A stretch of 64,000 nt of DNA from an uncultured bacterium. GTDB taxonomy: Bacteria; Verrucomicrobiota; Kiritimatiellia; RFP12; CAIWXQ01. The position numbers and the translations under genes were made by a program. The stretch's first letter is position 1. Every line of letters begins with the position of its first letter. A model generated the notes under the pieces. It saw nothing but the letters and a program-made list of their open reading frames with translations, made no database searches and was not told where the DNA came from. The stretch lies in contig CAIWXQ010000029.1 of NCBI GenBank assembly GCA_903916675.1, forward strand, positions 14,376-78,375. The letters are read 5' to 3'. Positions 19,230-36,519 of the stretch are shown one piece after another.

Positions 19230-20471
19230 TTACGGCTTGGACTTGAGATCGTAGGCGACCAAGGCGTCGCCGTGGCGCAGATAGAGCACGCCGCCGGCCA
19301 GTACCGGCTGGCCCCAGTGCTCTTTCATCTTGCTGCCAAAATCCACCGGAAGGGAGCCGGCCAACCGCCCCTTGTCGCCTTCGATGCGGATCAGCGCGAT
19401 CATCTTGCCGACCTCGTCGTAGCCAATCAGCCCGGCCTCGGTGCCGATGATGGCTGTGCGCGACACCCCCTCGATGCGGGAAAGCACTTTGCCCGTCTGC
19501 GGATCCAGGCAGAAGAGCGGGCCTTTGCTGCCTGCCAGGTAGAGGCGCTTGTCGATCAGCAACATGCCGTGGAAGTGATTGTCCGCGTCCTTCAACTGCC
19601 AGGCCAGCGTGGCGCCATCCGCGCCAATCTGCAGGCACTCCGTGCCGTAGCCATAGCCGGAGGAGACCACCACGCGGTCGGGCCCGACCACCACCGGCGT
19701 GTTGGGATGCACAGCCCACTTGTTCTTGTGCGGGTGCTTCCAGAGCACAGCGCCGGTGTCGGGATCGATCCCCACCACATTCTCGGCGGTCTGGGTCACG
19801 ATCTGCCGTTTGCCGTTCAGCGTGAGCAGCGACGGCGAGCAGTAGGCGCTGGCGTCAGAAAGCCCCTTGGTCGCCCAGATTGTCGCGCCAGTGTTGACAT
19901 CCAGCGCGGCCACGGCCGCATCTGGACCGCCGGGGTGGCAGATCAGCATCTTGTTATCCACCAGCAGTGGCGACTCGGCAATTCCCCACGTAATATTCTT
20001 TCCGTGAAATCGCTCGAACAGGTTCACGTCCCAGATTTTATTGCCGTCCGCGGCATTCACGCAGACGACGCGGTCCATGCCGCTGACCAGGTAAACATGG
20101 CCATTCGCCACGGTCGGCGTCGTGCGGGCAGCATCATAACCACCGCTCCACTCCTTGCCGTACTCGTACTCCCATTTCAGGGATCCGTCCGACGCATTGC
20201 GCGCCTCGAGCACGCCGATGCGCGCCTTGGGCTCCCCTTTTGACCCGGTCAGGTAGATCACGCCACCGGCAACGGCAGGGCCGTTGTAGCCCATGCCGGC
20301 AATCGTCACCAGCCACAGCCGTTTTGGCGGCGTAGACCAGTCGGCTAGAATCCCCTTTTCTTTCGAAATGCCGTCGCGGTCCGGGCCGCGCCATTGAGGC
20401 CAGTCCGCCGCTGTCGTCAGTCCTGTCATCATCGCGGCCAGCATGCCGATGCCAATCTTTCCTGCCATCAT
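19230..20471 (-). CDS. Secreted PQQ-binding-like beta-propeller protein
   Basis: Signal peptide, ADWPQWRGPDRDG start and repeated xDxxTGxxLW blades. Confidence 0.88.
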   Translation of the reverse strand: MMAGKIGIGMLAAMMTGLTTAADWPQWRGPDRDGISKEKGILADWSTPPKRLWLVTIAGMGYNGPAVAGGVIYLTGSKGEPKARIGVLEARNASDGSLKWEYEYGKEWSGGYDAARTTPTVANGHVYLVSGMDRVVCVNAADGNKIWDVNLFERFHGKNITWGIAESPLLVDNKMLICHPGGPDAAVAALDVNTGATIWATKGLSDASAYCSPSLLTLNGKRQIVTQTAENVVGIDPDTGAVLWKHPHKNKWAVHPNTPVVVGPDRVVVSSGYGYGTECLQIGADGATLAWQLKDADNHFHGMLLIDKRLYLAGSKGPLFCLDPQTGKVLSRIEGVSRTAIIGTEAGLIGYDEVGKMIALIRIEGDKGRLAGSLPVDFGSKMKEHWGQPVLAGGVLYLRHGDALVAYDLKSKP

Positions 20472-20739
20472 GAGGGGCCCCTGTCTGTTACCGATTCATG
20501 TTGATGCGAATGTCATCCCCGTACATTGCCGTACGAATCCCGCCTACCAGGCGTATTCAGCAGCGTGACGAGCCTGAACGGGGGCGGCAGCCAGAATATA
20601 CCCCAGCTGCGCCCAGAGGAGCAATCCCATCGCCTCCATATTCGGGCCTGTCTTGCCCGTAACCGATTAGGTGGCATGGCCTTAGGCAAAAGAATGCCAG
20701 CAACCAGGCCGCTAATGTGTTGGAGAGGCTTGATCCACC

Positions 20740-20935
20740 TTGATTAACCTTGATTTGGCTTGATTCAGCGGCCATCGTCAGTCCCACCATCCGACTGCGG
20801 TCGAGCTTCAGGTGTTCGGCGGTGTGGTCACCCTTGCGCAGCGCGACGAGGTAGCGGCACAACTCGCGCAATTGTTCCCAGTCCTCCGGTTTCACACTGG
20901 CGGCCGTGCTCATGGACTCGATCATGCGCAGGTAC
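20740..20935 (-). pseudogene. Possible fragment of a hypothetical protein
   Basis: EQLRELCRYLVALRKGDHTAEHLKLDR...QIKVNQG reads like a real protein segment inside an otherwise implausible ORF; family recalled only vaguely. Confidence 0.25.
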
Positions 20936-21521
20936 CGGATAGGTATCGATTGCGTTGTCGATACCGATCCAGACACCGATGGAGTTGCGGGCTCGCGCCC
21001 GCCTTGGGGGGGGATGAAGTAGACATAAATAGACACGAAACAGGCCCACCTTCTGGACATGATTCTTTGCAGCTGACCATTCATCAACGAGTTACAGCCG
21101 AATTGCGGCGTTGTGACCGGCGTTTCGTGTCTATTTTTTTCATCGTGTAGGTCCCCGCCGTCGCCGTCACAACCTTCACGCCGTTTGCCATAAATAAGCC
21201 CTCCCAAAAAACATCATGCCCCCCATATAAGGATGCAAAGCCTCACGAAGAAACGAGAAACCAAATAAAACCGGCCCTGAAATGAAGGTCAAAAGCCTCA
21301 AACCCTTTTTTGGGAATCCCCAAAAAACCGGCGATTGTCCGTAGTCCAAAAAACATCGCGCCCTCTATATAAGAGGAGTAATTCGACACGAATAATCCGA
21401 AAAAAGAAATAAGGCCGCCAAAAAAAGGGGAAACAAAATAAAACCAATTCGACATCGGGCTTTTTACACCCCCCGTTTTGCCGCCACACAGAGGTAGGGA
21501 CGGCGGGTTATTTTCTATTTT

Positions 21522-21700
21522 CCGGGTAGCAACTCGCCGCAACCAGCGTTGCAGCGAGCTGCCCCCACAGACCCGGACTAGCAAATTTCCCGCATCCGGT
21601 TCTTCAGACAGAGCGTTCACACGGACGATAGAGATCATGGACAATGCGGGGTAGCGCCAGCGGATGACGAATTTGCGCTGGCGGTAGGGTTGCACCTGCC
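21522..21700 (-). mobile_element. Group II intron 3' remnant (RT/maturase C-terminus plus domains V and VI)
   Basis: Minus strand GAACCGGATGCGGGAAATTTGCTAGTCCGGGTC-TGTGGGGG (DV-like), then hairpin GCAGCTCGC...GCGAGTTGC and TACCCGG (DVI and end), preceded by RHPLALPRIVHDLY...stop. Confidence 0.82.
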
Positions 21701-21749
21701 GGGGTATATGCTGTCTGATGGTAAAACTGGGACAACATCGTAACCTTCT

Positions 21750-21934
21750 TCCGCACCGCCTGCGAAATGCCACGGCAGAGGGGATCAACAGCCGGATCCA
21801 GCAACTGATCCAAGAGGCCTGCGGATACCGAAATCGTGAGCTCTTCAAACGTGACGTGCTCTTTCATCTTGGCGGACTCGACCTAACCCCCGTGGTTATG
21901 CAATGACAAAACCCCCGCTATTCCTGGAAGGACC
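21750..21934 (+). mobile_element. ISL3-family transposase C-terminal remnant with a probable right terminal repeat
   Basis: NATAEGINSRIQQLIQEACGYRNRELFKRDVLFHLGGLDL matches the ISL3 C-terminal signature; ends ...TATTCCTGGAAGGACC (reads GGTCCTTCC inward). Confidence 0.82.
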
Positions 21935-21940
21935 TACGTT

Positions 21941-23668
21941 TTATTGTTTTTCAAACGCTCCAATATCTCTTAATCCAATTATCGGATGACCTAAATAATC
22001 TGATTGCGGCATACCTGTTATGACCACTCCTGTATTAATAGCGGGCGATCCTGCCTGTAAAATGTAATCAGATGTTGACGTAAAAAGAGGATCTGCAGGA
22101 GTAGGACTATTGGCATCCTGCCCTGTTGCTGATTTATATGCTTCCCAGTTAGCAAATGTATATCCACTGCCAGAATAAATTAGTTTACCAGTTGACCCGA
22201 TAGGATTAAAATATAGATTACAGTCACTTGTTTGAGTTGCGGTAACCACTATCATCGCATAATATTTATTATTGACTGCCGGATTAGTGTTAACATAAAA
22301 GATATTATTTTTTGCCGTACAAGTAGATCTAGTGTTATATATAAAACCTATTACACCTGCCGGTGCTAATGAAGAATTAACTCCGTAGAATGTATTGTTA
22401 TAAACAAAGGAGGTAATACCTTCCATTTGAAGTCCAGATGCTTTTAAATTCCTAAATACATTGTTATAAACATATACATTGGTGATTGGCGCACCCCCTT
22501 GATTGGATATAAACACGCCAACACTACCCAATATTTCAACCCCATCAATCATCACATTGGGATCGTCATAAATTAAATTTTTACGAATAATAATATTATA
22601 CATTATCCCATTTACGTGGTTTATTATATCAATCCCCGTAGTGTGATGCCCATTATAGAGAGTATTATTCTCAATAATTATATCTTTGACAGTAACTGAA
22701 CCCGTAAATATATCTGATGTGTTAATAGATATTCCTCTCCTTCCGGTATCATGTATGATATTGCTTTTAATTAAAGCACTGGAGAGAGTAGTCGCAATTC
22801 CATATCCCGCTGATTTAACACCCTCGTGATGAATATAACAATCTTCTACTTTTAAACCCAGTAAGGCAACCGGTGGATAATTAAAATCATAAACCCCATA
22901 TACCCCATAACCTAACTCTAGTCCGTTAATGCTTATGTATTCCTTATTGTTAAGTGATATGCTAAGATTTCGTTGTCCAACCTCAACTCCAGAATATCTT
23001 GTATTTGGATCAGTAGGTGAATATATGTAAATATGATCTCTTAGCCACACCCAATCATACTCCTGTGCTAAACCTAGCAAATCTGATTTCTGAATCCTAC
23101 CCCAGTTTATACTTCCGTCCGTTTCTTTGAAATAAATGTTCTTCGCAGTTGTAGGATCAGACAACGTGATGTCCGAACACCACACATTAGCTGGATAAAT
23201 TATAGCAGGGGACCACGTTGTGACTAATTCCGACCCAAGTATTTTAGGCTTAGCACCTGCGCCATACGCACCAAATGTTATATAATTACTCGCAATACCC
23301 GACGAAGGGACAATCAATGATTCTCGCCATGTATCTCCTTTATTAAAATTTACTTGTGTGCCCGGAGTAAACGTGCTGGAATTAACCTTAGATATTGTCT
23401 GCCATGCTGTCGCCATTGTTAGTCCATCAGCAGCATCGATTCCTGTATTAGAAACATAATACATAGGATAAGTAGTTATAGAAGGTACTCCAGACAGATA
23501 GACATTAACCTTATCGAAATTCGTTTTTAACGGATCCCCCGTATGATCCTTGGCCGTAGTTCCTGTATAGGGATGAGGAAGATTTCTTGTCAGTTGCTTT
23601 TGAGTAGAACAGGAAATTAATCCGATTATTAAAAATATAACTAGTATTTTTTCATTCTGAATTGTCAT
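21941..23668 (-). CDS. AT-rich right-handed parallel beta-helix (pectin-lyase-fold) lipoprotein; foreign cargo C
   Basis: Lipobox-like LISC, YYVS, FNKGDTW, IENN/VYNN repeats, GSPAINTG...DIGAFE C-terminus; much lower GC than the flanks. Confidence 0.85.
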   Translation of the reverse strand: MTIQNEKILVIFLIIGLISCSTQKQLTRNLPHPYTGTTAKDHTGDPLKTNFDKVNVYLSGVPSITTYPMYYVSNTGIDAADGLTMATAWQTISKVNSSTFTPGTQVNFNKGDTWRESLIVPSSGIASNYITFGAYGAGAKPKILGSELVTTWSPAIIYPANVWCSDITLSDPTTAKNIYFKETDGSINWGRIQKSDLLGLAQEYDWVWLRDHIYIYSPTDPNTRYSGVEVGQRNLSISLNNKEYISINGLELGYGVYGVYDFNYPPVALLGLKVEDCYIHHEGVKSAGYGIATTLSSALIKSNIIHDTGRRGISINTSDIFTGSVTVKDIIIENNTLYNGHHTTGIDIINHVNGIMYNIIIRKNLIYDDPNVMIDGVEILGSVGVFISNQGGAPITNVYVYNNVFRNLKASGLQMEGITSFVYNNTFYGVNSSLAPAGVIGFIYNTRSTCTAKNNIFYVNTNPAVNNKYYAMIVVTATQTSDCNLYFNPIGSTGKLIYSGSGYTFANWEAYKSATGQDANSPTPADPLFTSTSDYILQAGSPAINTGVVITGMPQSDYLGHPIIGLRDIGAFEKQ

Positions 23669-23785
23669 TGATAAGAAATCGTTTTTCGGTCGGCACCGGC
23701 CCTCATCGGCCGAAACCATGCCTGCACCGGCAAAAGACTGCGATGTCATGATGATGAGCCTGCCAGAAGCGGGGATAAACGTCAA
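23667..23785 (-). mobile_element. IS91/ISCR oriIS-like end, copy 1, with a conserved outward promoter-like motif
   Basis: Minus-strand end CCGAAAAACGATTTCTTATCAAT is shared with copies at 29527 and 31574; TTGACG-N17-CAGGCT at 23785-23757. Confidence 0.65.
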
Positions 23786-23926
23786 GATCACCACCGAGAA
23801 GGCTGTAGGCTGAATACTGTTAGGTGAGAGAGTTTCCACCGCGAAGAACGCGACGAAACGCGAAGGTGGGATCGATGGGAGCGTTCAGGCGTTCGCGTAA
23901 ATCAGGTCCGGATCGGTGTCGTAGTC

Positions 23927-23999
23927 CCGTCTTCGCTGCGCTACGCCGCGGCACGCGTAGGAGACATCATCCGCCTCCGCCTCGACTACGGCGGACAAG
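23927..23999. repeat. Pair of short REP-like palindromes
   Basis: CCGTCTTCGCTGCGCTACGCCGCGGCACG and CCGCCTCCGCCTCGACTACGGCGGACAAG, two related imperfect hairpins. Confidence 0.5.
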
Positions 24000-24122
24000 T
24001 CGAGGCACGGCTCGATGACCAGTTCGTTGGGTGGGTCGGGGCCAGCGAGAAGGCTGCAGGACGGAGGAAAAGCAAAGTGCTCGAAGCAGCCCGTTGTGGA
24101 CCTTGGCGGTCTCTGTATGCTC

Positions 24123-24305
24123 TTACCTGCAAATGTTCGCGGCAGGTTGCGTCAAGAAATCCACGACCTCGGGGATGATCGGGCGCAGGAAACCGTAGCG
24201 GGGATGGGAATGCCGCTCGTAGCCGGCGAGAAAGGCGGCGAAATGCCGGGACAGACATTGCCAGAGGGGCGGAGCACAGGGTTTGTGGGGGCGGTAGGGT
24301 TTCAC
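24123..24305 (-). pseudogene. IS91-family (Y2 HUH) transposase N-terminal remnant
   Basis: KPYRPHKPCAPPLWQCLSRHFAAFLAGYERHSHPRYGFLRPIIPEVVDFL resembles the segment preceding the zinc-binding domain of IS91-like transposases; truncated and oriented toward the oriIS-like end. Confidence 0.72.
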
Positions 24306-24347
24306 CTACCGGGATATATGCAACCTGGGGGCGAAATCTTACACGGG

Positions 24348-24395
24348 TAGCGGCGGGATTTGGATTAGGAGCACGATTACGATTAGGAGGAGAAG
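24348..24395. repeat. Partial copy of the array spacer (GATTAG segment)
   Basis: TAGCGGCGGGATTTGGATTAGGAG...GATTAGGAGGAGAAG matches 29881-29922 and 31929-31970. Confidence 0.85.
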
Positions 24396-24562
24396 TTACA
24401 CGGGGCCGATAACTAGAGTGGCGTTAAGGTAGTAACCAGTTGCGGAGGGCAGTGGGGTGATCCCATCCTTGACGTGTGCCCCGGTTGTGCCACGCTTACC
24501 GCATGATTAAAGATTCCCCCAAGTCCTTTCAACAGTATCCATGGCTGGCCGCGTTTCCGGGC

Positions 24563-25582
24563 TTATTCATCCAGCGTGACCACCGTGCCGGAGGCGGCGG
24601 AAGCCAGCATGGCGTGCGCCACGCGTAGCGACTCGATGCTGCTGCGCAACGTGGCCACAGGCGTGGCCCGCCCCTCAAGGCAGTCGAAGAAGTGCTCGAC
24701 ACTGCGCATGGGCCGGTCGCGCATCCGCATCCATCCACACTCGAAGCTCATGACTTCGTCCTGCGCCACGTGCTCCTCGCGAAACCGGTCGAAATGATAC
24801 GGATGCGCCAACTGCGAAGCAAACGAACCTCTGGAACCGGTGATCACGAGGTGCTCGTACGGCAGACGCGCCAGCGAATCGCCCACATGGAACATCGCGC
24901 CGCTGCGCAACCGGCCGGTGGCAAAGACCAGTTCCTCGGTATTTCCGCCCGGGACCGTGGTCCGGGTGGTGCAGTATACCTCGCGGAACGGGCCGAACAG
25001 GAAGTAGAGGAAATCGAGCTGGTGGCAGCAATGGTGCACGATCCATCCGCCAGACTCCTCCGGCCGTTCCGTGGCCCAGTGGCGCGCGCCCGAGGCATGC
25101 AGGCCGTTGGGGCGGCAGCGCTCGTAGCTGATGGAGAGGATCTCGCCAAACGCGCCGCGCTGCAGCAGCGACTGGATCTGGTCCGCCTGCGTCGTGTACC
25201 GGAGCGAATAGTTCACGGTGTTCACGACCCCGGCCTTCTCCACCGCCTCCACCATGGCCAAGGCATCCGGCAGCAGCACGGCAACGGGCTTCTCGCAGAA
25301 GATGGGCAATCCGCGCGCCGCCGCAGCCAGCACATGCTCCCTGTGGGCGCTGTTGCTGGAGGTGACCATGACAAAGTCCAGCCCCCAGCCGCAAAGCTCC
25401 TGCACATCGCGCGTGACCCGCAGGCCGAATTCAGCCGCCGCCAGATCCAGCCTGGGCTGGCTGCGGTCGCAGGCCGCCACAATCCGCGCGCGGGGATTGT
25501 TCCCCTTGTTTAGGTAGTGCGTCAACTCCTGGCCAGCGACTCCGAACCCGATGATTCCACCTGTTAGCATGGCAGATTCCAT
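24563..25582 (-). CDS. Gfo/Idh/MocA family oxidoreductase (cargo B)
   Basis: GIIGFGVAG Rossmann motif, IFCEKP, HHCCHQLD; start may be at 25570. Confidence 0.88.
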   Translation of the reverse strand: MESAMLTGGIIGFGVAGQELTHYLNKGNNPRARIVAACDRSQPRLDLAAAEFGLRVTRDVQELCGWGLDFVMVTSSNSAHREHVLAAAARGLPIFCEKPVAVLLPDALAMVEAVEKAGVVNTVNYSLRYTTQADQIQSLLQRGAFGEILSISYERCRPNGLHASGARHWATERPEESGGWIVHHCCHQLDFLYFLFGPFREVYCTTRTTVPGGNTEELVFATGRLRSGAMFHVGDSLARLPYEHLVITGSRGSFASQLAHPYHFDRFREEHVAQDEVMSFECGWMRMRDRPMRSVEHFFDCLEGRATPVATLRSSIESLRVAHAMLASAASGTVVTLDE

Positions 25583-25660
25583 CCCAAGGGCTTACCTGTT
25601 TCAACCATGTTGGATCGTCTGAAGAATTCCGGGACACAGCGCACCGGAAGCTCGTGTCGG

Positions 25661-27502
25661 TCACGGGTTGCTTTCCGGACGCACACCCCAATGCGGCAGC
25701 GGTGCGCCAAACTCCAGCGCGCCCAGATCCGGCGCAGCCCCAACAAACGTTTCGACGATGTTTGGAATCACGATCCCCTTGTCAATGGCTGGCGAGCCCT
25801 TGGCCAGGGCATAGATGAGTTTGGGCGCGGTCCACGTCTCGTTGATGGCTTTGTCCGTTGCAGCCTGGTCCGGGAACTTGTCGGCCATACAGGATTCCAT
25901 TGTCAGGAGCACGCCATGCCGCTCCAGCCCGGTGAGGGACTGGAACTGCGCCAGCGTCAGGATAGTTGCATACGGCTTGCCCGCAGCGCCGAAAAAGTGA
26001 GCCATGTGGCCGGCAAATGTGCCGTTGTAGCCGTTATAATCAAGGTCGAGCGTGTGCGGCGACCGAAGAAAGTCCTCCACGTGGTATTTGAGCGCGATTT
26101 TCTGACCGGTGAGGAACAGGTTGTTCCGGGCATAGGTCTGCTCGATGAGGTCTGTGGTTCCCTTTTCAACATCACCGGCGGCAATGAAGGTGTTATTGAT
26201 CAGGATCGCGCCGCAGGACTTGTAGCGCTGCTTGATGGGCGATTCGCGGCAGTTGTGGACAATGTTGCGTATGATGTAAGCTGGGCCGCCGATGTAGGGC
26301 TGAAAGCTGATGCCGTTGTTGCCGGTGTAAGACCAGCGGTTGCCCCAGACGCGCAGGTTGGGACCACCCTCGTCCAGCTCAATGCCATCGTCGGCGTTGA
26401 AGAAGCAGTTGTTGCCATAGACATCGCTGTCGGAGCACTGGGCGCGAAGCAGGTCAGCCACACGCGTGACCTGGTTGTAGCAGATGATGTTTCCCTTCCC
26501 GCCCACACCGTCGTTGATCACCAGGCCGTGTGCTTCGCTCCAGTCGTCATCCTTCGGCATTTTCGACGGCGGCGCCTTGATGCCGGTGATCGTGTTGTCG
26601 GCGAAATAGCCATTGCGCCCGCCGGCGCGAATCGCATCCCAGCACCCGGATATCGTGCAGCGCATGACGGCCACGTCCTCGCAGGTGATCTTTTTGACCT
26701 CGATGCCGTTCTCAAAGGACCGGATGCGCAGCCCCTGAATCCAGACATGCGATCCGCGGATTTCGATCCCCGTTCCCTGCCCACCGGCAAACTCCTTTTC
26801 CGGCGCATCGCCCTGGATGATGACTTCGCCCTCTTTGTCCGCCACAATGCAGATGGGGTTTGCAGGCGTGCCGCTGGCATCAACCGTAAACCCGCGGTAG
26901 GTTCCGGCATGCACACGGAAGATGTCGCCGGGGCGGGCCCTGGCCACGGCTTCTGCCAAGGCATGGCCGCCGCCCTTGACATCCATGCGCTGGCCGGTTT
27001 TCGGAATCACGGGTTCCACGCGGGTGGTGAACGACAGGGTCTTCGTTGCGCCGCCGCCATCCGGGTCGGCCAGCGTGATCCTGGCCTCGTAGGCGGTACC
27101 GGGGTTCAGGTTGAAGATCGACCCGGCAAAGTAATTCCATTTGTAATGCTCCTGCAGGTACAGGAACTTATCCTTGCTCCATTTCGGAAGCCCTTTGAGG
27201 AACTCAACCGGAATGCCGCCGACCGTATTGGCCGTCCGGTCCACCGCCTGCGGGAACATACGCCACATGGGGAGCGTCTTGTTCCAATTCGTCTTTCCCT
27301 TTTCGCGGAACTCCAATGTGCCGGTGGCGTTGCGGTTGTCATCGCCGCTGATATTCCAGGTGATGCCAGCGCAAAGGATTGTGGGCACCACTTCAATCGC
27401 GCCCGGGACCAGCGCATTGCCCGCTCTCACGATCAGGGGCGCGATGGCCAGAAAACAAAGCGCGGCAAAGATCGCGCCAGAGAAACGACCGGGGCCATGC
27501 AT
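25661..27502 (-). CDS. Secreted right-handed beta-helix protein (cargo B)
   Basis: GAAAGGA RBS, signal peptide, FAGSIFNLNPGTAYE, DDGIELD, GSPAIDKG, APDLGALE. Confidence 0.82.
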   Translation of the reverse strand: MHGPGRFSGAIFAALCFLAIAPLIVRAGNALVPGAIEVVPTILCAGITWNISGDDNRNATGTLEFREKGKTNWNKTLPMWRMFPQAVDRTANTVGGIPVEFLKGLPKWSKDKFLYLQEHYKWNYFAGSIFNLNPGTAYEARITLADPDGGGATKTLSFTTRVEPVIPKTGQRMDVKGGGHALAEAVARARPGDIFRVHAGTYRGFTVDASGTPANPICIVADKEGEVIIQGDAPEKEFAGGQGTGIEIRGSHVWIQGLRIRSFENGIEVKKITCEDVAVMRCTISGCWDAIRAGGRNGYFADNTITGIKAPPSKMPKDDDWSEAHGLVINDGVGGKGNIICYNQVTRVADLLRAQCSDSDVYGNNCFFNADDGIELDEGGPNLRVWGNRWSYTGNNGISFQPYIGGPAYIIRNIVHNCRESPIKQRYKSCGAILINNTFIAAGDVEKGTTDLIEQTYARNNLFLTGQKIALKYHVEDFLRSPHTLDLDYNGYNGTFAGHMAHFFGAAGKPYATILTLAQFQSLTGLERHGVLLTMESCMADKFPDQAATDKAINETWTAPKLIYALAKGSPAIDKGIVIPNIVETFVGAAPDLGALEFGAPLPHWGVRPESNP

Positions 27503-27558
27503 GTGGCATTCCTTTCGCAGGGCTGAAAACGCATCGCGGCCAAATTCTGCAGGTTGTT

Positions 27559-29505
27559 CTACTGTTGCGTACTCAGATTCTTCGGGTGCGCCAGTTGGCT
27601 GGCGCTCTCTTCCACCGTGATGGTGCTGCCGTCCTCCGCATAGGACGGTGGCGCGATGGAATCGGATACGCCGGGGAACAGTTCTTCCACGCGCGCACGA
27701 TGCCTGCACATGGTCATAATTTTCCTTTCCAGCAGTTCCGGCAGGTTAACGGGCAGGCAGAACGTGGATTCCTCTCCTGTGGCAATCAGCGGCGTGCGGG
27801 CGTGGTGAAGCAGCGCGATGATGCGGCGGCAGTTGGCGATGTCGCCGTCGATCATATCATACAGTCGCCGCTTTTCGCGCGGTTGCGCCCATTTGTCGCG
27901 CAACGGATGGCCGGCAAACCGGTCGATCACCCACTGCACGGCCGTGGCGTGCAACTGACAGCGGAACAGGCTGGCAAACATGTCGATGCGATCCCGCTGG
28001 TCGCGCAACCAGGCGAGGTGCGTGGCATCTGTGCCCGGCTGCGCACAGGCCGCATCGAGCGTGCGCAGCGCCCGTCCAAAGTACAACTGCATCGCCTCCA
28101 ACCCGTCGGTTCGCCAGGCATACTCGGGTAATGCATAGAGAACCGTATTCTCGGATGCCAGCAGGGTCCGGAAGCCCAGTTCCAAGTCACGATCCTTGAT
28201 GGCATGTGCTGACCAATATCCTCGCTCCTCCGCATCCAGTGCCGCCGGCACCGGGACGAATGGACGTGTCAGCCAGCGACGGCCCAGGATGGAATAGAAG
28301 AAGTAGTAGGAATGATCGTAGCGAATCGGGTGGACGAGCAGCGCCTGCTGGACATCGCGCCAGGCAGATTCCAAGGCCGCTGCATGCACCGGGCCCACCA
28401 GTTCGACAGCCAGTTCCGCCACCATCCGGTCCACACCCGCCACATTTGCCGGGCAGTGCGCCAGACAACGGTCCAGCAGCATCTGCAGCGGCGCGCAAGT
28501 TCCGGGCAGCGGCCCGGGAGCCGTGTATCCGCACTCGATGGTCCGCACGTCCGTCTCCCGCAGCGACAGCACCATTTCGCCGCCCATGAACAACAGTGGC
28601 GGCGCCACCATCGGATTCCACCAGTACTTGCCCGCCGGATCCATACCTGCAACCGGGCGCGTCTCCGTGCCTTGGCAGGCATGGGCAAAGGTGTGCAGGT
28701 GATGCCCGGAAAAAGGCAGGTTCACGGGGTCACTGAACCCGCTGACGCAGACCAGCCGCGACGGCGGCCGCAGGGCACGGGCGGTTGACTGCAATTCCGC
28801 GGGTGTGAAATGCGTGCCGACAAAATCCACGACCAGTTCCCGACCGCCCGCGCGCGAGCCGTCGCGGATCGCCTGAAACCAGGACTGCACCCGTTCGCCC
28901 ATGTCGCGATCGCGCACCTCTGCCGGGCCGTTGGGGCCGGGATAGAGGCCGCGGCACCAGTTGATGCCCGCGCCTGAGTCGTTGGTCCAGATGACAATCC
29001 GCTGCACTGCGGGCGCGAGTTCCACCAGCCCCCGGGCCAGCTGGTAATAGTGTTCCAGCACGAGGGGATGGTCGATGTTCAGCGCGTAGTGCGCCGAACG
29101 CGAAACCCCGGGCTGGTCGCAACGGCACCCCTTGAGCCCGGGATGCGTGGCATACCATGGCTCCGGCATCCAGATCGGCTCGAGGAACCTGATCGAAGCC
29201 CCCATCCCATGCCGCTGCAGGAGGGCGCTCTGCCAACGAAGCATCACGCGGTTGCGGGCATAGGTTTCGGGGAGAAAATAGCCGTGGATGAGGTCGGTCT
29301 CGACGATCTTGTACATCGCCGCGTTGATGACCGCGTAAAACTCCCAGGTGTCTTCCGTACTGGTGCGCTGCTCAGGGGTCGGTCCGGCCAAGCCGTCCAA
29401 GGCGACCAGCGAGTATCCCTGACCACTGGCCTGGCGCACCTGCGCTTCGAAGACATCCGGCGTCGACGCATCGAGGCCTACAGTCAAGACGTCGAACTCG
29501 CACAT
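27559..29505 (-). CDS. Hypothetical protein, possibly glycoside-hydrolase-like (cargo B)
   Basis: 648-aa ORF with AGAAGGGG RBS; WTNDSGAG motif; co-oriented with carbohydrate-type genes. Function not identified. Confidence 0.7.
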   Translation of the reverse strand: MCEFDVLTVGLDASTPDVFEAQVRQASGQGYSLVALDGLAGPTPEQRTSTEDTWEFYAVINAAMYKIVETDLIHGYFLPETYARNRVMLRWQSALLQRHGMGASIRFLEPIWMPEPWYATHPGLKGCRCDQPGVSRSAHYALNIDHPLVLEHYYQLARGLVELAPAVQRIVIWTNDSGAGINWCRGLYPGPNGPAEVRDRDMGERVQSWFQAIRDGSRAGGRELVVDFVGTHFTPAELQSTARALRPPSRLVCVSGFSDPVNLPFSGHHLHTFAHACQGTETRPVAGMDPAGKYWWNPMVAPPLLFMGGEMVLSLRETDVRTIECGYTAPGPLPGTCAPLQMLLDRCLAHCPANVAGVDRMVAELAVELVGPVHAAALESAWRDVQQALLVHPIRYDHSYYFFYSILGRRWLTRPFVPVPAALDAEERGYWSAHAIKDRDLELGFRTLLASENTVLYALPEYAWRTDGLEAMQLYFGRALRTLDAACAQPGTDATHLAWLRDQRDRIDMFASLFRCQLHATAVQWVIDRFAGHPLRDKWAQPREKRRLYDMIDGDIANCRRIIALLHHARTPLIATGEESTFCLPVNLPELLERKIMTMCRHRARVEELFPGVSDSIAPPSYAEDGSTITVEESASQLAHPKNLSTQQ

Positions 29506-29526
29506 GCAACCGGAACCCCTTCTAAA

Positions 29527-30173
29527 ATTGATAAGAAATCGCTTTCAGGCTGACACGGGCACAGGTCCGCAGAAACCGGTTGGCAGCAGCGCATTCGTGA
29601 TTAAAAGCCTGCCAGAAGCGGGAATAGATGTCCAGTACACAGCGACACGCCCCTATGGGGCCCGGACGGGGCGTGAAAGAAAGCTGCAGGGAGATGTGGA
29701 CAACAGACTGGAACCCAGTGGCCGCATCATGGACCACTGGCGCCGCTGCAAAGCGGCTAGCACCAGGAACCTGGAGCGTGCCGAGGGGCTAGTCATCCCC
29801 GTTCCGCGGTCAACATGTGTGCTACCATATTACCGGTGAAAGTGGCCTCATATGTCGGTTAGCGCTACACCCTTCCCGGCTAGCGGCGGGATTCGGATTA
29901 GGAGTGCGATTAGGAGGAGAAGATGAGTCAGCCCTCCGGCGAGGAAATCCGTACGCAGCGGAGTGCACGCCCTACCCCGCGGCGACAGAAAACGGCGGCT
30001 GCCACTTTGTGGAACTCTGTCAAAAATGCGCCGGGTGCCGCTGGCGCTGGGCCTTGACCTTGGGCTGCTCCAACCCGAGCGCGTACCACTCCTCTGCCAA
30101 GCCGGCGTTAGAGAACTGGTTGACGCGGTTGTTGGCGAGATGGTCGCGGTTGGCCTTGATGATCTCGTCTTCC
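29527..30173 (-). repeat. Array unit 2: truncated 3' end of gene X (30020-30173) plus ~490-bp non-coding element ending in an oriIS-like site
   Basis: Aligns by eye end to end with 31574-32232; 30020-30173 matches 33010-33163. Confidence 0.93.
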
Positions 30174-30199
30174 GCGGGATCGTATATTGCGACCTATTG

Positions 30200-31609
30200 T
30201 CACGGAACGCTCAGCTTGTAGAATTTCACGGCGGCCCTGTTGGTGTCGACATACGACGATTGCAGCCCGCTTGCATTCTGGCCGTTGGTCCCATTGGCCG
30301 CGGTCCAGGCGCCCGCCAAGTTTGTGGAGGTCTCCACCACGTAGGAAATGCCGGGCAGTGTTTGATAGTTCAGCACTGCCTGGTCATGGACAACAAGGGA
30401 TACGATGGCCGGATTCTCCAGCAGCGGGCCTGTGGGGCTTGCGTAGAAATAGTTGTTGCCGAGCAGATTGATCGTGTCCGTGATGGCGGCGCTGGTGTAG
30501 GTGGTGATGCCGCAGTTCACGGCGACGAGAACCAGAAACCGGTTCGTGGGCCACAGGTAGAATTCCGAGTCCTGGCCAAAAATATCCCCACCGTGGTAGA
30601 GGCCGTTCTCGCCGGCAAATGACCAGTACAGAATCGAGACGCCACGGCCCATGTCATTGCTGCCGATGGTCTGGTGGATGTCGTAAGGCAGGTGGAGCCG
30701 GGGCAGGACCGCGGTGTTGGTCAGGTAGTCGCTGACGACCGTGTTGGCGTGCAGATGGATGAACTTCGCCCAGTCTTTCAGCGGAAGCCCCGCGTAACCG
30801 GCGGCACCACAGGAGGCGCGGTAGTGCCACTCGTAGTTCGAGGGCAACTTGAGGCGCGGCGTGAGTACAAAGGTGTTCGTGTTCAAGTCGTGGCCAACCG
30901 GCGCCTTGGGCGGCAGCGTGTTGTCAAAGACCTGACCCAGTGCCGCCGAACTCATCCGGACAGGCGTGAAGACCTCCTGCTGGATCAAGGTTTCCCAGTC
31001 TGTTCCGCTGGCGATTTCCAGCATCGTGGCGACTACGGCGTAGCCCTGGTTGGCATACAGGTACTGGCCCGGCGGAACTTGCGGCGCGTCCTTGAGCACT
31101 GTGTCGCTCACCCAGCGACGGAGCTGCGAGACGCTGCCGTTCTGCGTCATGAAAGTCGACCAGTGGTTGGCGTCAAATGTGTTTTCTTCCTGCACGCCGC
31201 CGCGATGGCAGAGCAACTGGTCGAGCGTCACGTTCGTGAACGCCGGGTTGAATGCCGGGTAGTTGGTGAACAGGTCGCAGATGCGCGTGTTCCAGTCAAT
31301 CAGGCCGCGATCCACCAGGCGCCCCGCGATGGTGGCTGTCATCCATTTCGTGCAGGAACCAATGTTGACGGGATCGGTGACCAGGAAAGGCGTGTTGGTG
31401 CCCTGCCGGCGGTAGCCTGCGGCTCCCTGCGCCACAATGTGCCCCTGCCTGACAGCCATGGCCGCGATGCCCGGCATGTGGCGGTTGGTCCGGATCGTCT
31501 CGAGACTGGCACTGACATCAACCTGGCCACGGGCTGCGGAATGGCCCAAGAGAAAGAGGAAAATGGCCGCCAGATTGACAAGGAACCGCTTTCTGGCAGA
31601 CAGGGGCAC
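30200..31609 (-). CDS. Secreted serine hydrolase (beta-lactamase/AmpC-like family), cargo A
   Basis: SxxK (GSCTK), LLCHRGG, YxN (YAN), HGG, and a C-terminal YVVETSTNL...FYKL domain; the GTG start lies inside the repeat element. Confidence 0.88.
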   Translation of the reverse strand: MPLSARKRFLVNLAAIFLFLLGHSAARGQVDVSASLETIRTNRHMPGIAAMAVRQGHIVAQGAAGYRRQGTNTPFLVTDPVNIGSCTKWMTATIAGRLVDRGLIDWNTRICDLFTNYPAFNPAFTNVTLDQLLCHRGGVQEENTFDANHWSTFMTQNGSVSQLRRWVSDTVLKDAPQVPPGQYLYANQGYAVVATMLEIASGTDWETLIQQEVFTPVRMSSAALGQVFDNTLPPKAPVGHDLNTNTFVLTPRLKLPSNYEWHYRASCGAAGYAGLPLKDWAKFIHLHANTVVSDYLTNTAVLPRLHLPYDIHQTIGSNDMGRGVSILYWSFAGENGLYHGGDIFGQDSEFYLWPTNRFLVLVAVNCGITTYTSAAITDTINLLGNNYFYASPTGPLLENPAIVSLVVHDQAVLNYQTLPGISYVVETSTNLAGAWTAANGTNGQNASGLQSSYVDTNRAAVKFYKLSVP

Positions 31610-32232
31610 AGGTCCGCAGAAACAGGCTGGTAGTAGCGCATTCGTGGTGAAAAGCCTGCCAGAAGCGGGGATAGATGTCTAGTACACAGCGACACGCCCC
31701 TACGGGCCCGGGCGGGGCGTGAGAGAAGGCTGCAGAGAGATGTGGACGACACAGACTGGAACCCAGTGGCTGCGTCATGGGCCACTGGCGCCGCTGCAAA
31801 GCGGCTAGCACCAGGAACCTGGAGCGTGCCGAGGGGCTAGTCATCCCCGTTCCGCGGTCAACAGGTGTGCTACCACATTACCGGTGAAAGTGGCCTCACA
31901 TGGCGGTTAGCACTACACCCTTCCCGTCTAGCGGCGGGAATCGGATTAGGAGTGCGATTAGGAGGAGAAGATGAGTCAGCCCTCCGGCGGAGGGGATCCG
32001 TACGCAGCGGAGTGCACGCCCGTGGCGACAGAAAACGGCGGCTGACACAGCCGCCGCTACACTGCGGGCGGGCGACAGCTGCCACTTTGTTGAACACTGT
32101 TAGAAATGCCCCGGGTGCCGCTGGCGCTGGGCCTTGATCTTGGGCTGCTCAAGCCTGAGCGCGTACCACTCCTCTGCCAGGCCGGCGTTGGAGAATTGGT
32201 TGACGCGGTTGTTGGCGAGGTGGTCGCGGTTG
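31574..32232 (-). repeat. Array unit 3: truncated 3' end of gene X (32100-32232) plus ~525-bp non-coding element ending in an oriIS-like site
   Basis: Direct repeat of unit 2; 32100-32232 matches 33010-33142; includes a REP hairpin at 32036-32061. Confidence 0.93.
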
Positions 32233-32288
32233 TCCTTTACGGGTCAGTCCCAGCGAGTTGTTTGGTGCTCCTCGTATTTCAGAAGCTA

Positions 32289-32633
32289 TCACTTCAAAGC
32301 CCATTCAACTCTCGTTGCGCTGAAAGCATCGATCGCTCGATACCCCTTGCTGTAACGGCCACTGTGCTTTGTGCCTGGAGGAATGACACACTCATCACCA
32401 GGGTGAAGATGAACTGGCTGCCCCCCAACAGTCCCATCAAATGTCCCCTCGACAACCAACGCGTATTCCCAAAAGTCGTGGACCTGCTCGGCTTGCTCGC
32501 CGCCTTCTTCACATTGCCAGAACACTACCTGTGCATGGTCATTCCCTTTGAATAGACACCCGTGCATGTGGCTATCAGGCGAGCCCGTAACCCGATTCGC
32601 GGGGGACATCACAAAACTCGGAAATGATTTCAT
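32289..32633 (-). CDS. Cupin-domain protein (cargo)
   Basis: AGGAGA RBS, HDFWEYALVVEG and LHPGDECVIPPGTKH cupin motifs; lower GC than the flanks. Confidence 0.85.
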   Translation of the reverse strand: MKSFPSFVMSPANRVTGSPDSHMHGCLFKGNDHAQVVFWQCEEGGEQAEQVHDFWEYALVVEGTFDGTVGGQPVHLHPGDECVIPPGTKHSGRYSKGYRAIDAFSATRVEWALK

Positions 32634-32946
32634 CAGAATCTCCTGCGTTCCCTACTGCTCATTCTGGATTCGCCCGCGCACCAACTAATATCAGCGTTAG
32701 AAAACTGAAGCCGGACACCTGCTCTAAATCACATTCACCAGCTGGCAAAGGAACCGTAGCGCATATTAGATATTAGCGTCAAGGAGTCAACAGGATGCAC
32801 AAACCGGCAGGATTCGGCACAGGGCCAGGCGCCGGGTGTACGTGACGGGATCCACTGCCTATTGCCGTATTTCGTGTGCCGGCATTCCAGATTATTAACA
32901 AGGTCTGTCGGAGGATGAGGGGGCGTTGGGAAGGCACCGTGGAGAT

Positions 32947-32971
32947 GGCGGCTGACACAGCCGCCGCTACA
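32947..32971 (-). repeat. GTAG-type REP hairpin downstream of gene X
   Basis: Minus strand GTAG-CGGCGGCTG-TGT-CAGCCGCC; second copy at 32036-32061; deleted in unit 2. Confidence 0.7.
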
Positions 32972-33009
32972 CTGTCGGAGGACGACGGCTGCCACTTTGT
33001 GGAACTCTG

Positions 33010-33819
33010 TCAAAAATGCCCCGGGTGCCGCTGGCGCTGGGCCTTGACTTTGGGCTGCTCCAACCCGAGCGCGTACCACTCCTCTGCCAAACCGGCGTTG
33101 GAGAACTGGTTGACGCGGTTGTTGGCGAGGTGGTCGCGGTTGGCCTTGATGACCTCGTTTTCCATCTTTTCACAGGCGCGCACCAGCACCTTATGCGCGG
33201 CCGCGACCTCCTTGCGCTGCACGAGCATCCAGGCGTACAGCGCGTACAGGATCGTCCCCTGGCCGTAGCGCAGGCGACGGGTCTGCTTGTGGAAGAATTT
33301 CTCCGCTGCCGCGGTTTCGCCGCGCACATGCAGGCGGGCCAGCTTCATGGCCGCGGTCATGGGATCCATGAACATGCACTTGGGCATCAGCGCGTCCACC
33401 TTGCGGAACTCCTTGAGCTGGTAGTGGAGCTGCATGCGCAGCGTGGCGATCTGGCGGTCCAGCAGCAGCGTCCAGCGGGCGTACTTCTCCAGAAGCTTCG
33501 AGGTCTCCAGCGCCTGTTCGATGAAGACGCGCTGGTCGCGCTCCAGCTCGAGCTGCGCCTGCTTCAGGCTTCCCGGCGGCCGCATCTGCCAGTGGTTGAT
33601 CTTCTGCTGCGCCTTCTTCTGACCAGCCATCAGCACGTTCTGCACCGCGTCCATGGCGGCTTTGACCTTGCGCCGCAGGAACAGCCCCATTGCAAACTGG
33701 CCGGCGATCACGCCCAGCACCCCCCAGAGCACAATCCAGAGCGTCCGGGCAGCGTGCGTCCACGCCAGCAGCCCGCCAACCAACACGCCCAGCAGTAAAC
33801 TGATCAGAATCGTATACAT
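33010..33819 (-). CDS. Gene X: hypothetical membrane-anchored helical (TPR-like) protein; anchor of the array
   Basis: Two N-terminal TM segments, helical cytoplasmic part, host-like codon usage; start MYTILIS at 33819. Confidence 0.8.
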   Translation of the reverse strand: MYTILISLLLGVLVGGLLAWTHAARTLWIVLWGVLGVIAGQFAMGLFLRRKVKAAMDAVQNVLMAGQKKAQQKINHWQMRPPGSLKQAQLELERDQRVFIEQALETSKLLEKYARWTLLLDRQIATLRMQLHYQLKEFRKVDALMPKCMFMDPMTAAMKLARLHVRGETAAAEKFFHKQTRRLRYGQGTILYALYAWMLVQRKEVAAAHKVLVRACEKMENEVIKANRDHLANNRVNQFSNAGLAEEWYALGLEQPKVKAQRQRHPGHF

Positions 33820-33988
33820 GTGACAATAACCCTCATTTGGCTCAACGTCAGGTATCATGCCGGAACTGCGCGCGTTTTCCAAGCCTGTCTGTCAGCCGGG
33901 CAGGACTCAATGAGAATACGGACACGAAGGAGAGGGAGAGATGAGGGAAGGAAACGAAAGGGCGGCTTCGCGGCTGGCCGAACCGGCC

Positions 33989-35320
33989 TTATGCCGGCAC
34001 GATGTTGCGGCCGGGCTTCGTGTAGACGCCGCGGGTATCGACGATCAGGCGGGCGTGGCGGCGCAGCAGCTTGTAGTCGAACGCGCTGTGGTTGGTGGCG
34101 ATCAGCACCACGTCGTGGCGGGCAATGGCAGCCGGCGTGAATGGCACGCTGCGCAAGTCGAACCGATGCTCCCGCATGGCAGGGAACTTCGGGAAGTACG
34201 GATCGGAATAGGACACTTTGGCACCGCGGGCGCGCAGCAGTTCCATCAGTTCCACGGCGGGCGACTCGCGTGGATCGTCCACGTCCTTCTTGTAGGCGAT
34301 CCCCAAAACCAGCACGCGGCAGCCGCGGACGGCGCGACCGCGCGTGTTGAGCGTGGCGGCGAGCTTCTCCACCACCCACTCGGGCATGCTGCTGTTGACC
34401 TCGCCGGCCAGCTCGATAAAGCGCGTGTGCACGCCGTACTCGCGCGCCTTCCAAGTGAGATAGAACGGATCGATCGGGATGCAGTGGCCACCCAGACCCG
34501 GACCGGGGCGGTACGGAACGAATCCGAACGGCTTGGTCGAGGCCGCGCGGATCACCTCGTGGATGTCGATCCCCATGCGGTCCGAGACGATCTTCATCTC
34601 GTTGACGAGCCCGATGTTCACGGCGCGGTGGATGTTCTCGAGCAGCTTGGTCATCTCCGCCGCGCGGGTGGAGCTGACCGGCACCACGCGGTCGATGACC
34701 TGGCCATAGAGCGCCACGCCCACGTCAAGGCAGTCCGGCGTGAAGCCACCGCAGACCTTGGGGATCGTGCGCGTGCAGAAGTTCGCGTTGCCCGGGTCTT
34801 CGCGCTCCGGCGAGAAGACCAGAAAGATGTCGCGGCCGATGGTCAGGCCGCGGGCGGCCATGCGCGGCGCCAGCTCCTCGTCGGTGGTGCCCGGGTAGGT
34901 GGTGCTTTCGAGCGAGACGATCTGCCCGCGCCGCAGGTGGGGCGCAAGCGACTCGATGGTGCCGATCACGAAGCGCATGTCCGGCTCGCGGTGGCTGTCC
35001 AGCGGCGTGGGCACACAGATGATCAGCGCGTCCGCGCGGCGAGCCAGCGCAAAGTCGGTCGTGGGTGTGAACCCCTGCCTGACGGCCTGGCGGATGCGGG
35101 CGGCATCGATGTGCTTGATGTAGCTGCGTCCGGCGCGCAGGCGCCGGACCTTTTCGGCATCCACGTCGAAGCCGATGACGTGAAACTGCTCCTCGATGAA
35201 CCGCAGAGCCAGCGGCAGCCCCACGTACCCGAGGCCGACAATGCCGACAACGGCCCGGCGCTTCTGGATGCGGGCGATCAGCTTTTCCTTGCAGGGGTTG
35301 GCCGAAACACGTGCTTGCAT
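33989..35320 (-). CDS. Nucleotide-sugar dehydrogenase (UDP-GlcNAc 6-dehydrogenase, WbpA-like)
   Basis: [56 protein letters not shown]. Confidence 0.93.
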
Positions 35321-35388
35321 GCAGGTTCCTCGATCAGAGCAATCAACACCGAAAACGCGTTGAATAGTGGCAACGGCAGGCGTGGAAG

Positions 35389-36519
35389 TCAAGGCTGCGG
35401 TGTGGGGTGCAGCGGAGCTGCGGCCTTCTCTGCCAGCACTTCCCGATAGACCGCCAGCGTCTGCTCCACCATCGCGTCGAGCGAGAAGCGCGCGAGAACA
35501 CTGGCGCGGAGGCCGGAAAAATCATGTTGGGAGACCGCGAGCAGACAGCGGGCCAGTGCTTCCGCGTTTTGGGGCGGAAAGAGGAAGCCGTCGCGGCTGG
35601 GGCGCACGATCTCCAGTGCGCCGCCGTGGGCCGTGGCAATCACCGGCGTCTCCATGGCCAGCGCCTCAGCCAGCGAGCGGCCGAAGCTCTCCGGCTGCGA
35701 GGAACAGGAGACGACGACATCGCTCAGCGCGTAGATCGCGTCCACTTCTCTCCTGCTGCCGGCGAAGTGGATGACATCCTCCAAGCCGAGGTCGAGCACC
35801 AGCGCCTGCAGGCGCGTTGCGTAGCGCTGGCGCTTGGGGTGCGTGCCGCCGACGATCACGCCGACGATCGACGGCGCCTCTTTGCGCGCCAGGGCCACGC
35901 CGCGGATGAAGGTCTCGTAATCCTTGAGCGGCGTGAGGCGGCCGACGCTGGTGGCCACGAATTTTCCGACCAGCCCGTGCTCCTGGCGGAACGCCTCGAC
36001 CACGGCGGCGGAAACGCAAGCCGGGTCGAACGCCGCTGCGTCCACGCCGCGATGGATCACGCGCAGCGCGCGGTCCGGCGTGCGGTAGTTCCGCTGCACG
36101 TAGTCACGCACCGCGTGGCTGACGCAGATCACGCGGTCGGCCTGCGTCATGATGCGGCTGTAAAGGCTGATGTGGTTGAACCCGTGCACGGTACTCACCA
36201 CCGGCAGGTGGAGCGTGCGGTTGGCCATGCGCAACAGCCAGGCCGGGACGCGGCTGCGCACATGCACGAGGTCCGGCCGCAATTCCGCCAGCGCCTGCCG
36301 CAGCCGGTGCGCGCGCCCTGGCGCGGTCAGCAGGTTCTTGCTGCAGACATCCATCGTCACATGCCAGCCGCCCGCATCCTCGATCGCCGTGGCCAGCCGA
36401 CCGCCGCACGAGATCACCGTGCTCTGCACGCCGCGCCGGACCAGTTCGCGGTTCATCTCCACGACGCCGCGCTCGACGCCGCCTTCCTGCATCTCCGGCA
36501 CTAACTGGACCACGTGCAT
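35389..36519 (-). CDS. Glycosyltransferase family 4
   Basis: [35 protein letters not shown]; start MHVVQL at 36519. Confidence 0.92.

Follow-up and report, generated by a model that had tools for sequence, protein, structure and literature searches.

IS91-family and ISCR insertion sequences are of importance as vehicles for the genes next to them, which they carry along by one-ended rolling-circle transposition. In one account, the family has distinct ori and ter ends, a tetranucleotide at the oriIS end, subterminal palindromes and no target duplication, with one-ended transposition at 1–14%; only four IS91/ISCR members are listed there as shown to transpose, and the IS91 target is quoted as 5'-CTTG (PMC13181058). 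For IS801, the available part of the respective study reports experimental evidence that right-end fragments of 229–679 nt are mobilised and that 290–1431 nt of upstream DNA are recruited (PMC3189936). Here, we describe three related sequence ends in a stretch of 64,000 nucleotides (the window) from contig CAIWXQ010000029.1 of an uncultured bacterium of the Kiritimatiellia (assembly GCA_903916675.1). These ends very probably represent the oriIS-type right termini of an IS91-family element, present in three copies that are internally deleted and non-autonomous. The lineage of this element is common in genomes of Verrucomicrobiota, Kiritimatiellia and Lentisphaerae.

The three ends and the copies they belong to

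Read on the minus strand, three ends with the window core GATTTCTTAT stop at 23667 (copy 1), 29527 (copy 2) and 31574 (copy 3), where and as a first, sequence-only reading of this DNA had quoted them. A degenerate pattern spanning all three has three single-strand matches in the window, against 0.01 expected from 100 shuffles, none of which gave three or more. In pairwise BLAST, copy 2 (30157 to 29527) and copy 3 (32237 to 31574) are 86% identical over 671 nt, and copy 1 (23717 to 23667) aligns with copy 2 (29577 to 29527). Copy 1 resembles the other two in about 130 nt at the right, split into two blocks, and in one further block on the left (24395 to 24344). The homology reaches the end coordinates and then breaks off, and the flanking DNA past the three ends gave no mutual alignment, in keeping with the earlier description of unrelated sequences beyond TCAAT. 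A right-end profile was built on the three ends of the window and later rebuilt from 29 ends. The ends and the copies to which we assign them are as follows:

23667..23689, minus strand: right (oriIS-type) end of copy 1, CCGAAAAACGATTTCTTATCAAT (nhmmer E 2e-20 to the right-end profile)
29527..29549, minus strand: right end of copy 2 (nhmmer, right-end profile, E 5e-25)
31574..31596, minus strand: right end of copy 3 (degenerate pattern and right-end profile)
23697..23712, minus strand: subterminal palindrome of copy 1, CGGCC-GATGAG-GGCCG (read from the sequence)
23667..24395, minus strand: copy 1, read as an internally deleted IS91-family element (BLAST, tblastn, locus comparison; left limit uncertain)
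24159..24305, minus strand: transposase remnant, residues 1–49, GTG start (81.6% identity to protein P0002, E 7.6e-20)
23888..24046, minus strand: transposase remnant, residues 421–463, then a stop codon (69.8% identity to P0002, E 5e-15, tblastn)
29527..29991, minus strand: copy 2, short derivative without detectable transposase remnant (BLAST, repeat comparison, tblastn)
31574..32036, minus strand: copy 3, short derivative, 86% identical to copy 2 (BLAST, repeat comparison)
21672..21726, minus strand: fourth remnant, the region 5' of the transposase start and the first ~8 codons (VQPYRQRK) of another copy (repeat comparison, BLAST)

The family assignment comes from the coding remnants of copy 1. 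A 60-aa frame at 24126–24305 on the minus strand matches 38 proteins (E ≤ 1, among 40 candidates), most of which are 450–470 aa long and carry PF14319 and PF04986. P0002, the nearest full-length relative of both remnants, matches the Pfam families Y2_Tnp (4e-23) and Zn_Tnp_IS91 (2e-18), and tblastn with this protein revealed that residues 50–420 are missing from copy 1; apart from the two remnants it gave no convincing match in the window. Since copy 1 carries both tips of the transposase gene, it can be regarded as an internally deleted IS91-family element. Hallmarks of the family are an HUH motif and a pair of catalytic tyrosines with a spacing of about four residues. The corresponding residues H176 and H178 (HPHLH) as well as Y324 and Y328 (RYYGWYSN) are invariant in 19 aligned transposases of the clade, and all of them lie in the part deleted from copy 1. 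The core end is located 218 nt past the transposase remnant, within the range of 200–310 nt seen in related loci, and both the protein search and tblastn place the remnant 5' of the end, in the arrangement that the sequence-only reading had described.

Copies 2 and 3 are about 460 nt each, without a detectable coding remnant. None of the long open reading frames (ORFs) in the 15–37 kb part of the window showed a transposase domain by Pfam, and judging from the sequence no copy in the window appears able to move alone. As a label for such short elements we considered the miniature inverted-repeat transposable element (MITE), which in the strict sense has terminal inverted repeats and a target-site duplication. 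The repeat finder detected no inverted repeats joining the two ends of copies 1–3, which rules out a strict MITE; the three are better called non-autonomous deletion derivatives. A blastn search with copy 1 in distant mode against a plasmid collection gave no match.

Related loci, end signature and probable target tetranucleotide

From the alignment of the 19 transposases, 77 loci (numbered with L below; 461 kb in all) were fetched from a species-representative genome collection, a scan of which confirmed at least 508 relatives. The loci stem mostly from Verrucomicrobiota, Kiritimatiellia and Lentisphaerae assemblies. All 43 hits of the right-end profile in these loci are on the transposase strand. 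When considering the 30 loci that have a complete transposase C-terminus and at least 450 nt downstream, the 16-nt core AAAGCGATTTCTTATC (up to three mismatches) was found 100–500 nt past the transposase match in 27, in fact at 200–310 nt, and always on the same strand. The motif is therefore linked to IS91-family transposases, as the sequence-only reading had expected; the expected place lacked a match in L044, L049 and L063. Elsewhere in the 461 kb, the core matched 23 times on the transposase strand and three times on the opposite one, with about 3–4 matches expected by chance on both strands.

An intact element consists of a left end, the transposase gene (zinc-binding and HUH/Y2 domains), about 220 nt of non-coding sequence with a subterminal hairpin, and the core ending in ...GAAAAGCGATTTCTTAT. 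More distant members of the clade end in AAATTCCTATC, with a AAATTCCTAT-type core. A core of this type had been named in the sequence-only reading for IS91, IS1294 and ISCR ends, and it is indeed matched by these distant members, by an ISCR1 copy and by an IS91-type copy. Most main-clade elements (e.g. L001, L003, L006, L007, L012, L013 and L020) have a divergently transcribed gene for a 329-aa WYL-domain protein directly 5' of the transposase. It is conserved within the repeated unit, and the lineage of the window (L016, L017) is without it. Beyond the WYL gene, L004 (1891–3920) has a phage-integrase-family gene.

The subterminal hairpin has 6 bp and is located 25–40 nt from the end. In the alignment, 83% of the cells are paired, compared with 32–51% for slid partners; 11 cells have compensatory two-sided changes, and a covariation score as high as this came up in 2 of 500 shuffles. 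This hairpin was drawn by hand and then tested, and RNAalifold on 26 right ends gave only two pairs.

For a logo of the end we collected 54 core instances and kept 52, dropping the dubious three-mismatch matches L058_5416 and L032_156. Past ...TTATC the bases are distributed as follows (n = 52):

Position +1: A 49, C 3
Position +2: A 24, G 20, C 7, T 1
Position +3: T 40, C 6, A 3, G 3
Position +4: T 25, A 12, G 8, C 7
Position +5 onward: information ≤ 0.13 bit

Instead of being scattered, the breakpoints are sharp and lie at TCAAT, with the information reaching zero 4–5 nt past ...TTATC; the outer limit of homology is firm. The end of copy 3 deviates from the other 51 instances by three substitutions at core positions that are invariant in these, and its hairpin is also weakened. 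This end has probably decayed beyond use.

The closest relative in an annotated complete replicon is an element of the Trichlorobacter lovleyi plasmid pIAE1 (NZ_CP058410.1), with 41% transposase identity. We compared 250 of the 290 kb of pIAE1 and examined 10 of 14 places found by tblastn. The ten copies are identical and co-oriented, and all end in ...GAAAAAGCAAATTCCTAT, i.e. ...TTCCTAT. Directly after this comes TCCT (six copies) or TGAC (four copies), and then nine distinct flanks. On the left, all ten copies start with AACGGGGCTGAGG, and five carry extra upstream DNA of two lengths. A duplication of flanking bases was not visible in the shown flanks of the ten copies. As far as sequence comparison can tell, this is the IS91-family pattern of the literature, that is, a tetranucleotide at oriIS, no target duplication and one-ended transposition. 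The ten copies (L084/L085, 150–250 kb of the replicon) lie within 72 kb with accessory genes between them, one of which is annotated as a reductive dehalogenase. Several share left-side hydrolase and toxin-antitoxin genes.

The abrupt loss of homology at TCAAT probably marks the junction of element and target. Since the cores align, with ...AAATTCCTAT followed by TCCT corresponding to ...GATTTCTTAT followed by CAAT, the end of the window element was placed after TTAT. The bases that come next in the clade from the Planctomycetes-Verrucomicrobia-Chlamydiae (PVC) group are C, A, A/G/C and T, with falling conservation. We consider it rather likely, given this comparison, that CAAT is the target tetranucleotide, with the clade consensus C-A-(A/G/C)-T. 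Between lineages whose last 17 nt are identical, positions +2 and +3 differ (L003, AAA; L038, AGT; likewise L001, ACT; L002, AGA; L033, AGT; L071, AAT). The earlier suggestion that part of TCAAT could be a target thus gains from this variation and from the two tetranucleotides of the pIAE1 copies, and loses from the constancy of these bases within lineages.

One candidate argument concerning the target was rejected. An ATG overlaps end 1 and could be taken as proof that its 'AT' is target DNA; however, an ATG 13 nt downstream would give the MKK... start that homologues usually have, and a single base in a run of six A is all that puts it out of frame. The ATG overlaps at the ends in L073 and L046 look fortuitous and were not used as target evidence either.

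On the left side, the boundaries are less distinct. Compared with L016 and L017, copy 1 would end at about 24352, yet 24344–24395 is still common to copies 2 and 3. In their left parts, all three copies contain a common block (24344–24395, 29877–29922 and 31929–31970, minus strand) in which CTCCTAATC words recur; this block either belongs to the left end of this particular lineage or goes back to DNA that a common ancestor had recruited. The sole match to the left-side sequence of the copies in the 77 loci is 44 nt long, in L016, and the alignment of left boundaries across the main clade was not clean.

Recruited DNA, neighbouring genes and rival readings

Beyond their left sides, copies 2 and 3 continue into pieces of a gene (gene X) that is present in the window at its native site. 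The DNA adjoining the copies comprises:

29992..30173, minus strand: gene X 3' fragment of 182 nt adjoining copy 2 on the left (identity to 32982–33163, 95.6%, BLAST)
32037..32237, minus strand: gene X 3' fragment of 201 nt adjoining copy 3 on the left (identity to 32947–33147, 91%)
32947..33163, minus strand: native gene X 3' end (ORF 33010–33882) and downstream hairpin, source of both fragments (BLAST)
30200..31609, minus strand: beta-lactamase-fold (serine hydrolase) ORF after end 3, first 12 codons inside copy 3
27559..29505, minus strand: 648-aa ORF of no known family, ATG 21 nt past end 2
21941..23668, minus strand: low-GC (30–45%) beta-helix lipoprotein gene starting at the copy 1 end (GC, guanine plus cytosine, profile and homologue search)

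The two gene X pieces, both of which include the hairpin downstream of the gene, have different start points and are 81% identical to each other. They stop 27 nt past the stop codon of a bla-like gene (copy 2) and 52 nt past that of a cupin gene (copy 3). In the IS91 family, DNA recruited by one-ended transposition sits on the left (terIS) side, and the gene X DNA on the left would accordingly be a signature of such events. Because the pieces end near the preceding stop codons, two separate one-ended products between co-oriented host genes are the simplest explanation, in which case the genes after ends 2 and 3 would be insertion targets rather than cargo. The sequence-only reading had regarded all three ends as exact cargo junctions. 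This is plausible for copy 1, where the GC content switches at the end, and doubtful for copies 2 and 3, which have their recruited DNA on the left side instead.

For the mechanism we draw on the biology of the family as regards HUH nicking, the exact position of the cut and the order of events. A transposase of the Y2 HUH type, provided in trans, would nick one strand at the junction of end and tetranucleotide; the nicked strand would be displaced towards the left end and closed into a single-stranded circle, which would be inserted beside a matching tetranucleotide elsewhere, without target duplication. In the case of copies 2 and 3, termination would have overrun the left end and dragged along 180–200 nt of the 3' end of gene X, and the insertions would have hit two co-oriented host genes in their intergenic or 5' regions. 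The beta-lactamase-fold ORF starts at a GTG within copy 3 and reads MPLSARKRFLVN-LAAIFLFLLGHSAA; end 3 clips its start, which appears to be a chimera made by the insertion of copy 3. The MPLSARKRFLVN part from copy 3 (31574–31609, minus strand) is in frame with the hydrophobic core of an apparent signal peptide. The ORF just upstream of copy 1 codes for a Gfo/Idh/MocA oxidoreductase.

At end 1, the GC content drops from 56% (23700–23799) to 31% (23600–23699), which bears out the abrupt change described in the sequence-only reading, and it stays at 30–45% down to about 21940. This low-GC stretch is a single gene, that of the beta-helix lipoprotein. Its relatives are at most 53% identical, and about 30 among the 120 relatives listed carry PF18962, which we take to be a Bacteroidota secretion tail. 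The fourth remnant (21672–21726), a left end with the start of a transposase gene, sits about 215 nt past the stop codon of the low-GC gene. It stands where the element that recruited the gene should be, which favours capture: the gene was probably brought by this further copy inserting next to the end of copy 1. We give about even chances to such a capture by one-ended transposition. At 23653–23668 (minus strand), the low-GC gene is in frame with the ATG that overlaps the end of copy 1, and the one-base offset at the six-A run may be a real frameshift or a homopolymer error.

Several points weigh against our interpretation of the copies and their target. The window holds no intact transposase according to tblastn with P0002, and any activity of the copies can therefore be judged from their sequence only. 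Even at E ≤ 10, Pfam and NCBIfam do not recognise the short remnant frames, and because of this the family assignment rests on the protein search and tblastn. The block of about 50 nt at 24344–24395 is absent from L016 and L017, the closest intact relatives with upstream sequence, and the left boundaries are hard to fix. No element occupies the native gene X site now, so that a donor for copies 2 and 3 is hypothetical. In the logo, the core positions served to select the instances and their conservation is inflated; only the positions past the core are unbiased. The three bases past TTATC are constant within a lineage or genome (AAT in 5/5 instances of L004, L005, which contributes two, L006 and L023; AGT in 3/3 of L041; AAT in 3/3 of the window), which could reflect a strict target preference or bases encoded by the element. 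Finally, with left ends as ill-defined as those in the window, the clade may or may not share the lack of a target duplication seen in the family.

Among the rival readings, the one that survives best treats the right end with its tetranucleotide as a preferred landing site, at which one-ended products, each a gene-sized segment with the element behind it, stack head to tail into an ISCR-like gene-capture array, so that every right end would mark where the next captured segment begins. The array would include at least the low-GC gene after copy 1 and possibly the segments 31573–29527 and 29526–23667. We regard this as tentative and, on the whole, unlikely. It would account for the GC switch from 56% to 31% exactly at end 1 that lasts for one gene, for the distant relatives of this gene with their PF18962 tails, and for the left-end remnant about 215 nt beyond it. 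Insertion directly beside a resident end is seen in relatives as well. Two of the ten pIAE1 copies (all co-oriented, with accessory genes between them) are followed by tandem right-end mini-fragments (24 + 9 nt and 33 nt), and TCCT comes after each of these. L058 has an 18-nt tandem of the very tip, L022 has a second core 15 nt past the end, and co-oriented extra ends occur 0.8–3.9 kb downstream of full copies in L005, L041, L057, L058 and L072. Some of these are solo right-end pieces of 38–72 nt, 0.8–2.4 kb downstream of full elements (L041, 5684–8380; L057, 5563–6432; L072, 5641–8090; L058, 4800–7300), and what is repeated in these four loci is the part of the full element that directly follows an internal end-like motif (AAAGCAATTCTCC or similar).

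On the other hand, the GC content of the segments between ends is unremarkable in seven other loci, bar one low-GC stretch in L038, and none of the segments recurred in a second context anywhere in the 77 loci or the window. The genes that follow right ends do not favour either strand (22/43 on the element strand in a crude codon-position GC test), and in the window all genes from about 17 to 37 kb are on the minus strand regardless. Moreover, copies 2 and 3 are explained otherwise, as their recruited DNA stops 27 and 52 nt past the preceding stop codons. It is doubtful, and a shade less likely than the array itself, that right ends as short as 38–72 nt, together with the tetranucleotide, are landing pads and start/stop signals for a transposase acting in trans, with cassette-like capture arrays in PVC bacteria as the outcome. 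If true, it is through such an array that a beta-helix lipoprotein gene of the Bacteroidota type would have entered the polysaccharide-related gene cluster of the window.

The remaining alternatives fare far worse. That the repeats are duplicated regulatory or 5'-leader regions of the host, and not mobile, might be suspected from the position of the three ends, 0–21 nt upstream of, or just within, the start of a co-oriented ORF. Yet the two extremities of an IS91-family transposase gene survive in copy 1, intact transposases are followed by this terminal sequence in 27 of the 30 loci, which come from many genomes, and a consensus scan predicted no outward sigma-70-like promoter in the ends; this reading is very improbable. 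Even less credible is a structured RNA (part of a group II intron, say, or the guide RNA of a transposon), for which one could cite a domain V/VI-like match nearby (21520–21604, minus strand): this match is below the gathering score and outside all three repeats, the repeats matched no Rfam family at E ≤ 1 (20000–36000, with the group II domain V/VI and D1–D4 models included), and the sole conserved pairing is the 6-bp hairpin. Integron-like or att-like sites of a tyrosine recombinase can likewise be dismissed as highly improbable, despite the phage-integrase-family gene that L004 has some 1.2 kb 5' of its transposase, since there is no integrase among the ORFs tested (15–37 kb of the window) and the ends are one-sided, always 3' of a Y2 transposase gene.

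A few further features were noticed. The group II intron-like match has 37.4 bits (gathering score 40) and an E value of 2.4e-4, lies about 70 nt past the fourth remnant, and no reverse-transcriptase ORF was seen near it. Between this match and the next ORFs, 21200–21500 (minus strand) has 44–46% GC, T runs and repeated TTTTTTGG-like words; the ORFs 21243–21848 and 20557–21207, which overlap the T-run stretch, had no Pfam or NCBIfam match. At 38469–38518, the repeat finder detected an overlapping palindrome of 31 nt, 87% complementary and unrelated to the elements.

Comparison with known systems

The kind of element found here is already known, and it reveals no new mechanism. What is added concerns a large lineage that had not been described: its right end and subterminal hairpin are now defined, and CA(A/G)T is its probable target. 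Family signatures such as recruited upstream DNA, right-end mini-fragments and co-oriented arrays are readable in uncultured environmental genomes, and the annotation of the window now accounts for a 10-kb repeat stretch, a chimeric ORF start and an abrupt change in composition. The accessible literature on IS91 in conjunction with Verrucomicrobia yielded no description of this lineage or its ends, which may already bear an ISfinder name. By sequence, the clade appears to belong to the IS91 family and to none of the named groups compared: its transposase is about 26–30% identical to plasmid proteins of the IS91 and ISCR types, a distant relationship only.

Members of the ISCR subgroup typically occur in an integron or resistance-gene context. 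In an ISCR1 copy (L078), oriIS ends in ...ACTTCCTATACCC (also as ...CTTCCTATACCC and ...GGTTTATACTTCCTATACCC) about 235 nt past the transposase stop. This distance 3' of the gene resembles that in the clade, and in both cases unrelated genes adjoin the end. Unlike ISCR1, the copies in the window are devoid of a transposase and of an integron context, and the proteins share 25.8% identity over 92% of their length. Membership in ISCR was ruled out on the basis of this identity, of 23–25% identity to ISVsa3 and of the lack of integron parts in the tested ORFs.

With IS91 the clade shares an HUH/Y2 transposase, an oriIS 3' of tnpA, a TTCCTAT-type core, a subterminal palindrome, sequence signs of one-ended transposition and possibly the lack of target duplication. 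In contrast to IS91, the close relatives have no orf121-like upstream gene, and many clade members have the divergent WYL gene instead. IS91-type proteins are about 30% identical to the clade transposase over 65% of the length. An IS91-type copy (L079) reads ...AATTTCCTATACGT, or in a longer stretch ...CAATTTCCTATACGT, followed by CAAG, the reverse complement of 5'-CTTG. Here, CAAG comes four bases past ...CCTAT, whereas conservation in the clade ends within four bases of ...CTTAT.

Helitrons, likened here by description only, also combine a rolling-circle enzyme of the HUH type with asymmetric ends, one of which has a hairpin close by, and with the capture of neighbouring DNA by end bypass; according to the available part of the source, they differ in being eukaryotic, in their Rep-helicase protein and in a hairpin near the 3' end that acts in termination (PMC4778049).

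IS801 of Pseudomonas syringae is a closer match. In the accessible portion of the work on it, an essential right end is followed by the target tetranucleotide, fragments consisting only of the right end are mobilised, and variable upstream DNA is recruited past the left end, like the gene X pieces on copies 2 and 3 (PMC3189936). Going by the same portion, the tetranucleotide is GAAC-like in IS801 and CA(A/G)T-like in the clade, the solo right-end pieces measure 229–679 nt in IS801 and 38–72 nt in the relatives of the window element, and copies 1–3 retain left-side sequence and are internal deletions rather than right-end fragments.

The pIAE1 element differs from the window copies in its host phylum, in its tetranucleotide (TCCT/TGAC) and in that its copies are intact and identical whereas those of the window have decayed. 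Both have the core AAAAGCAAATTCCTAT, sharp right ends, recruited upstream DNA of differing lengths and an arrangement in co-oriented arrays.

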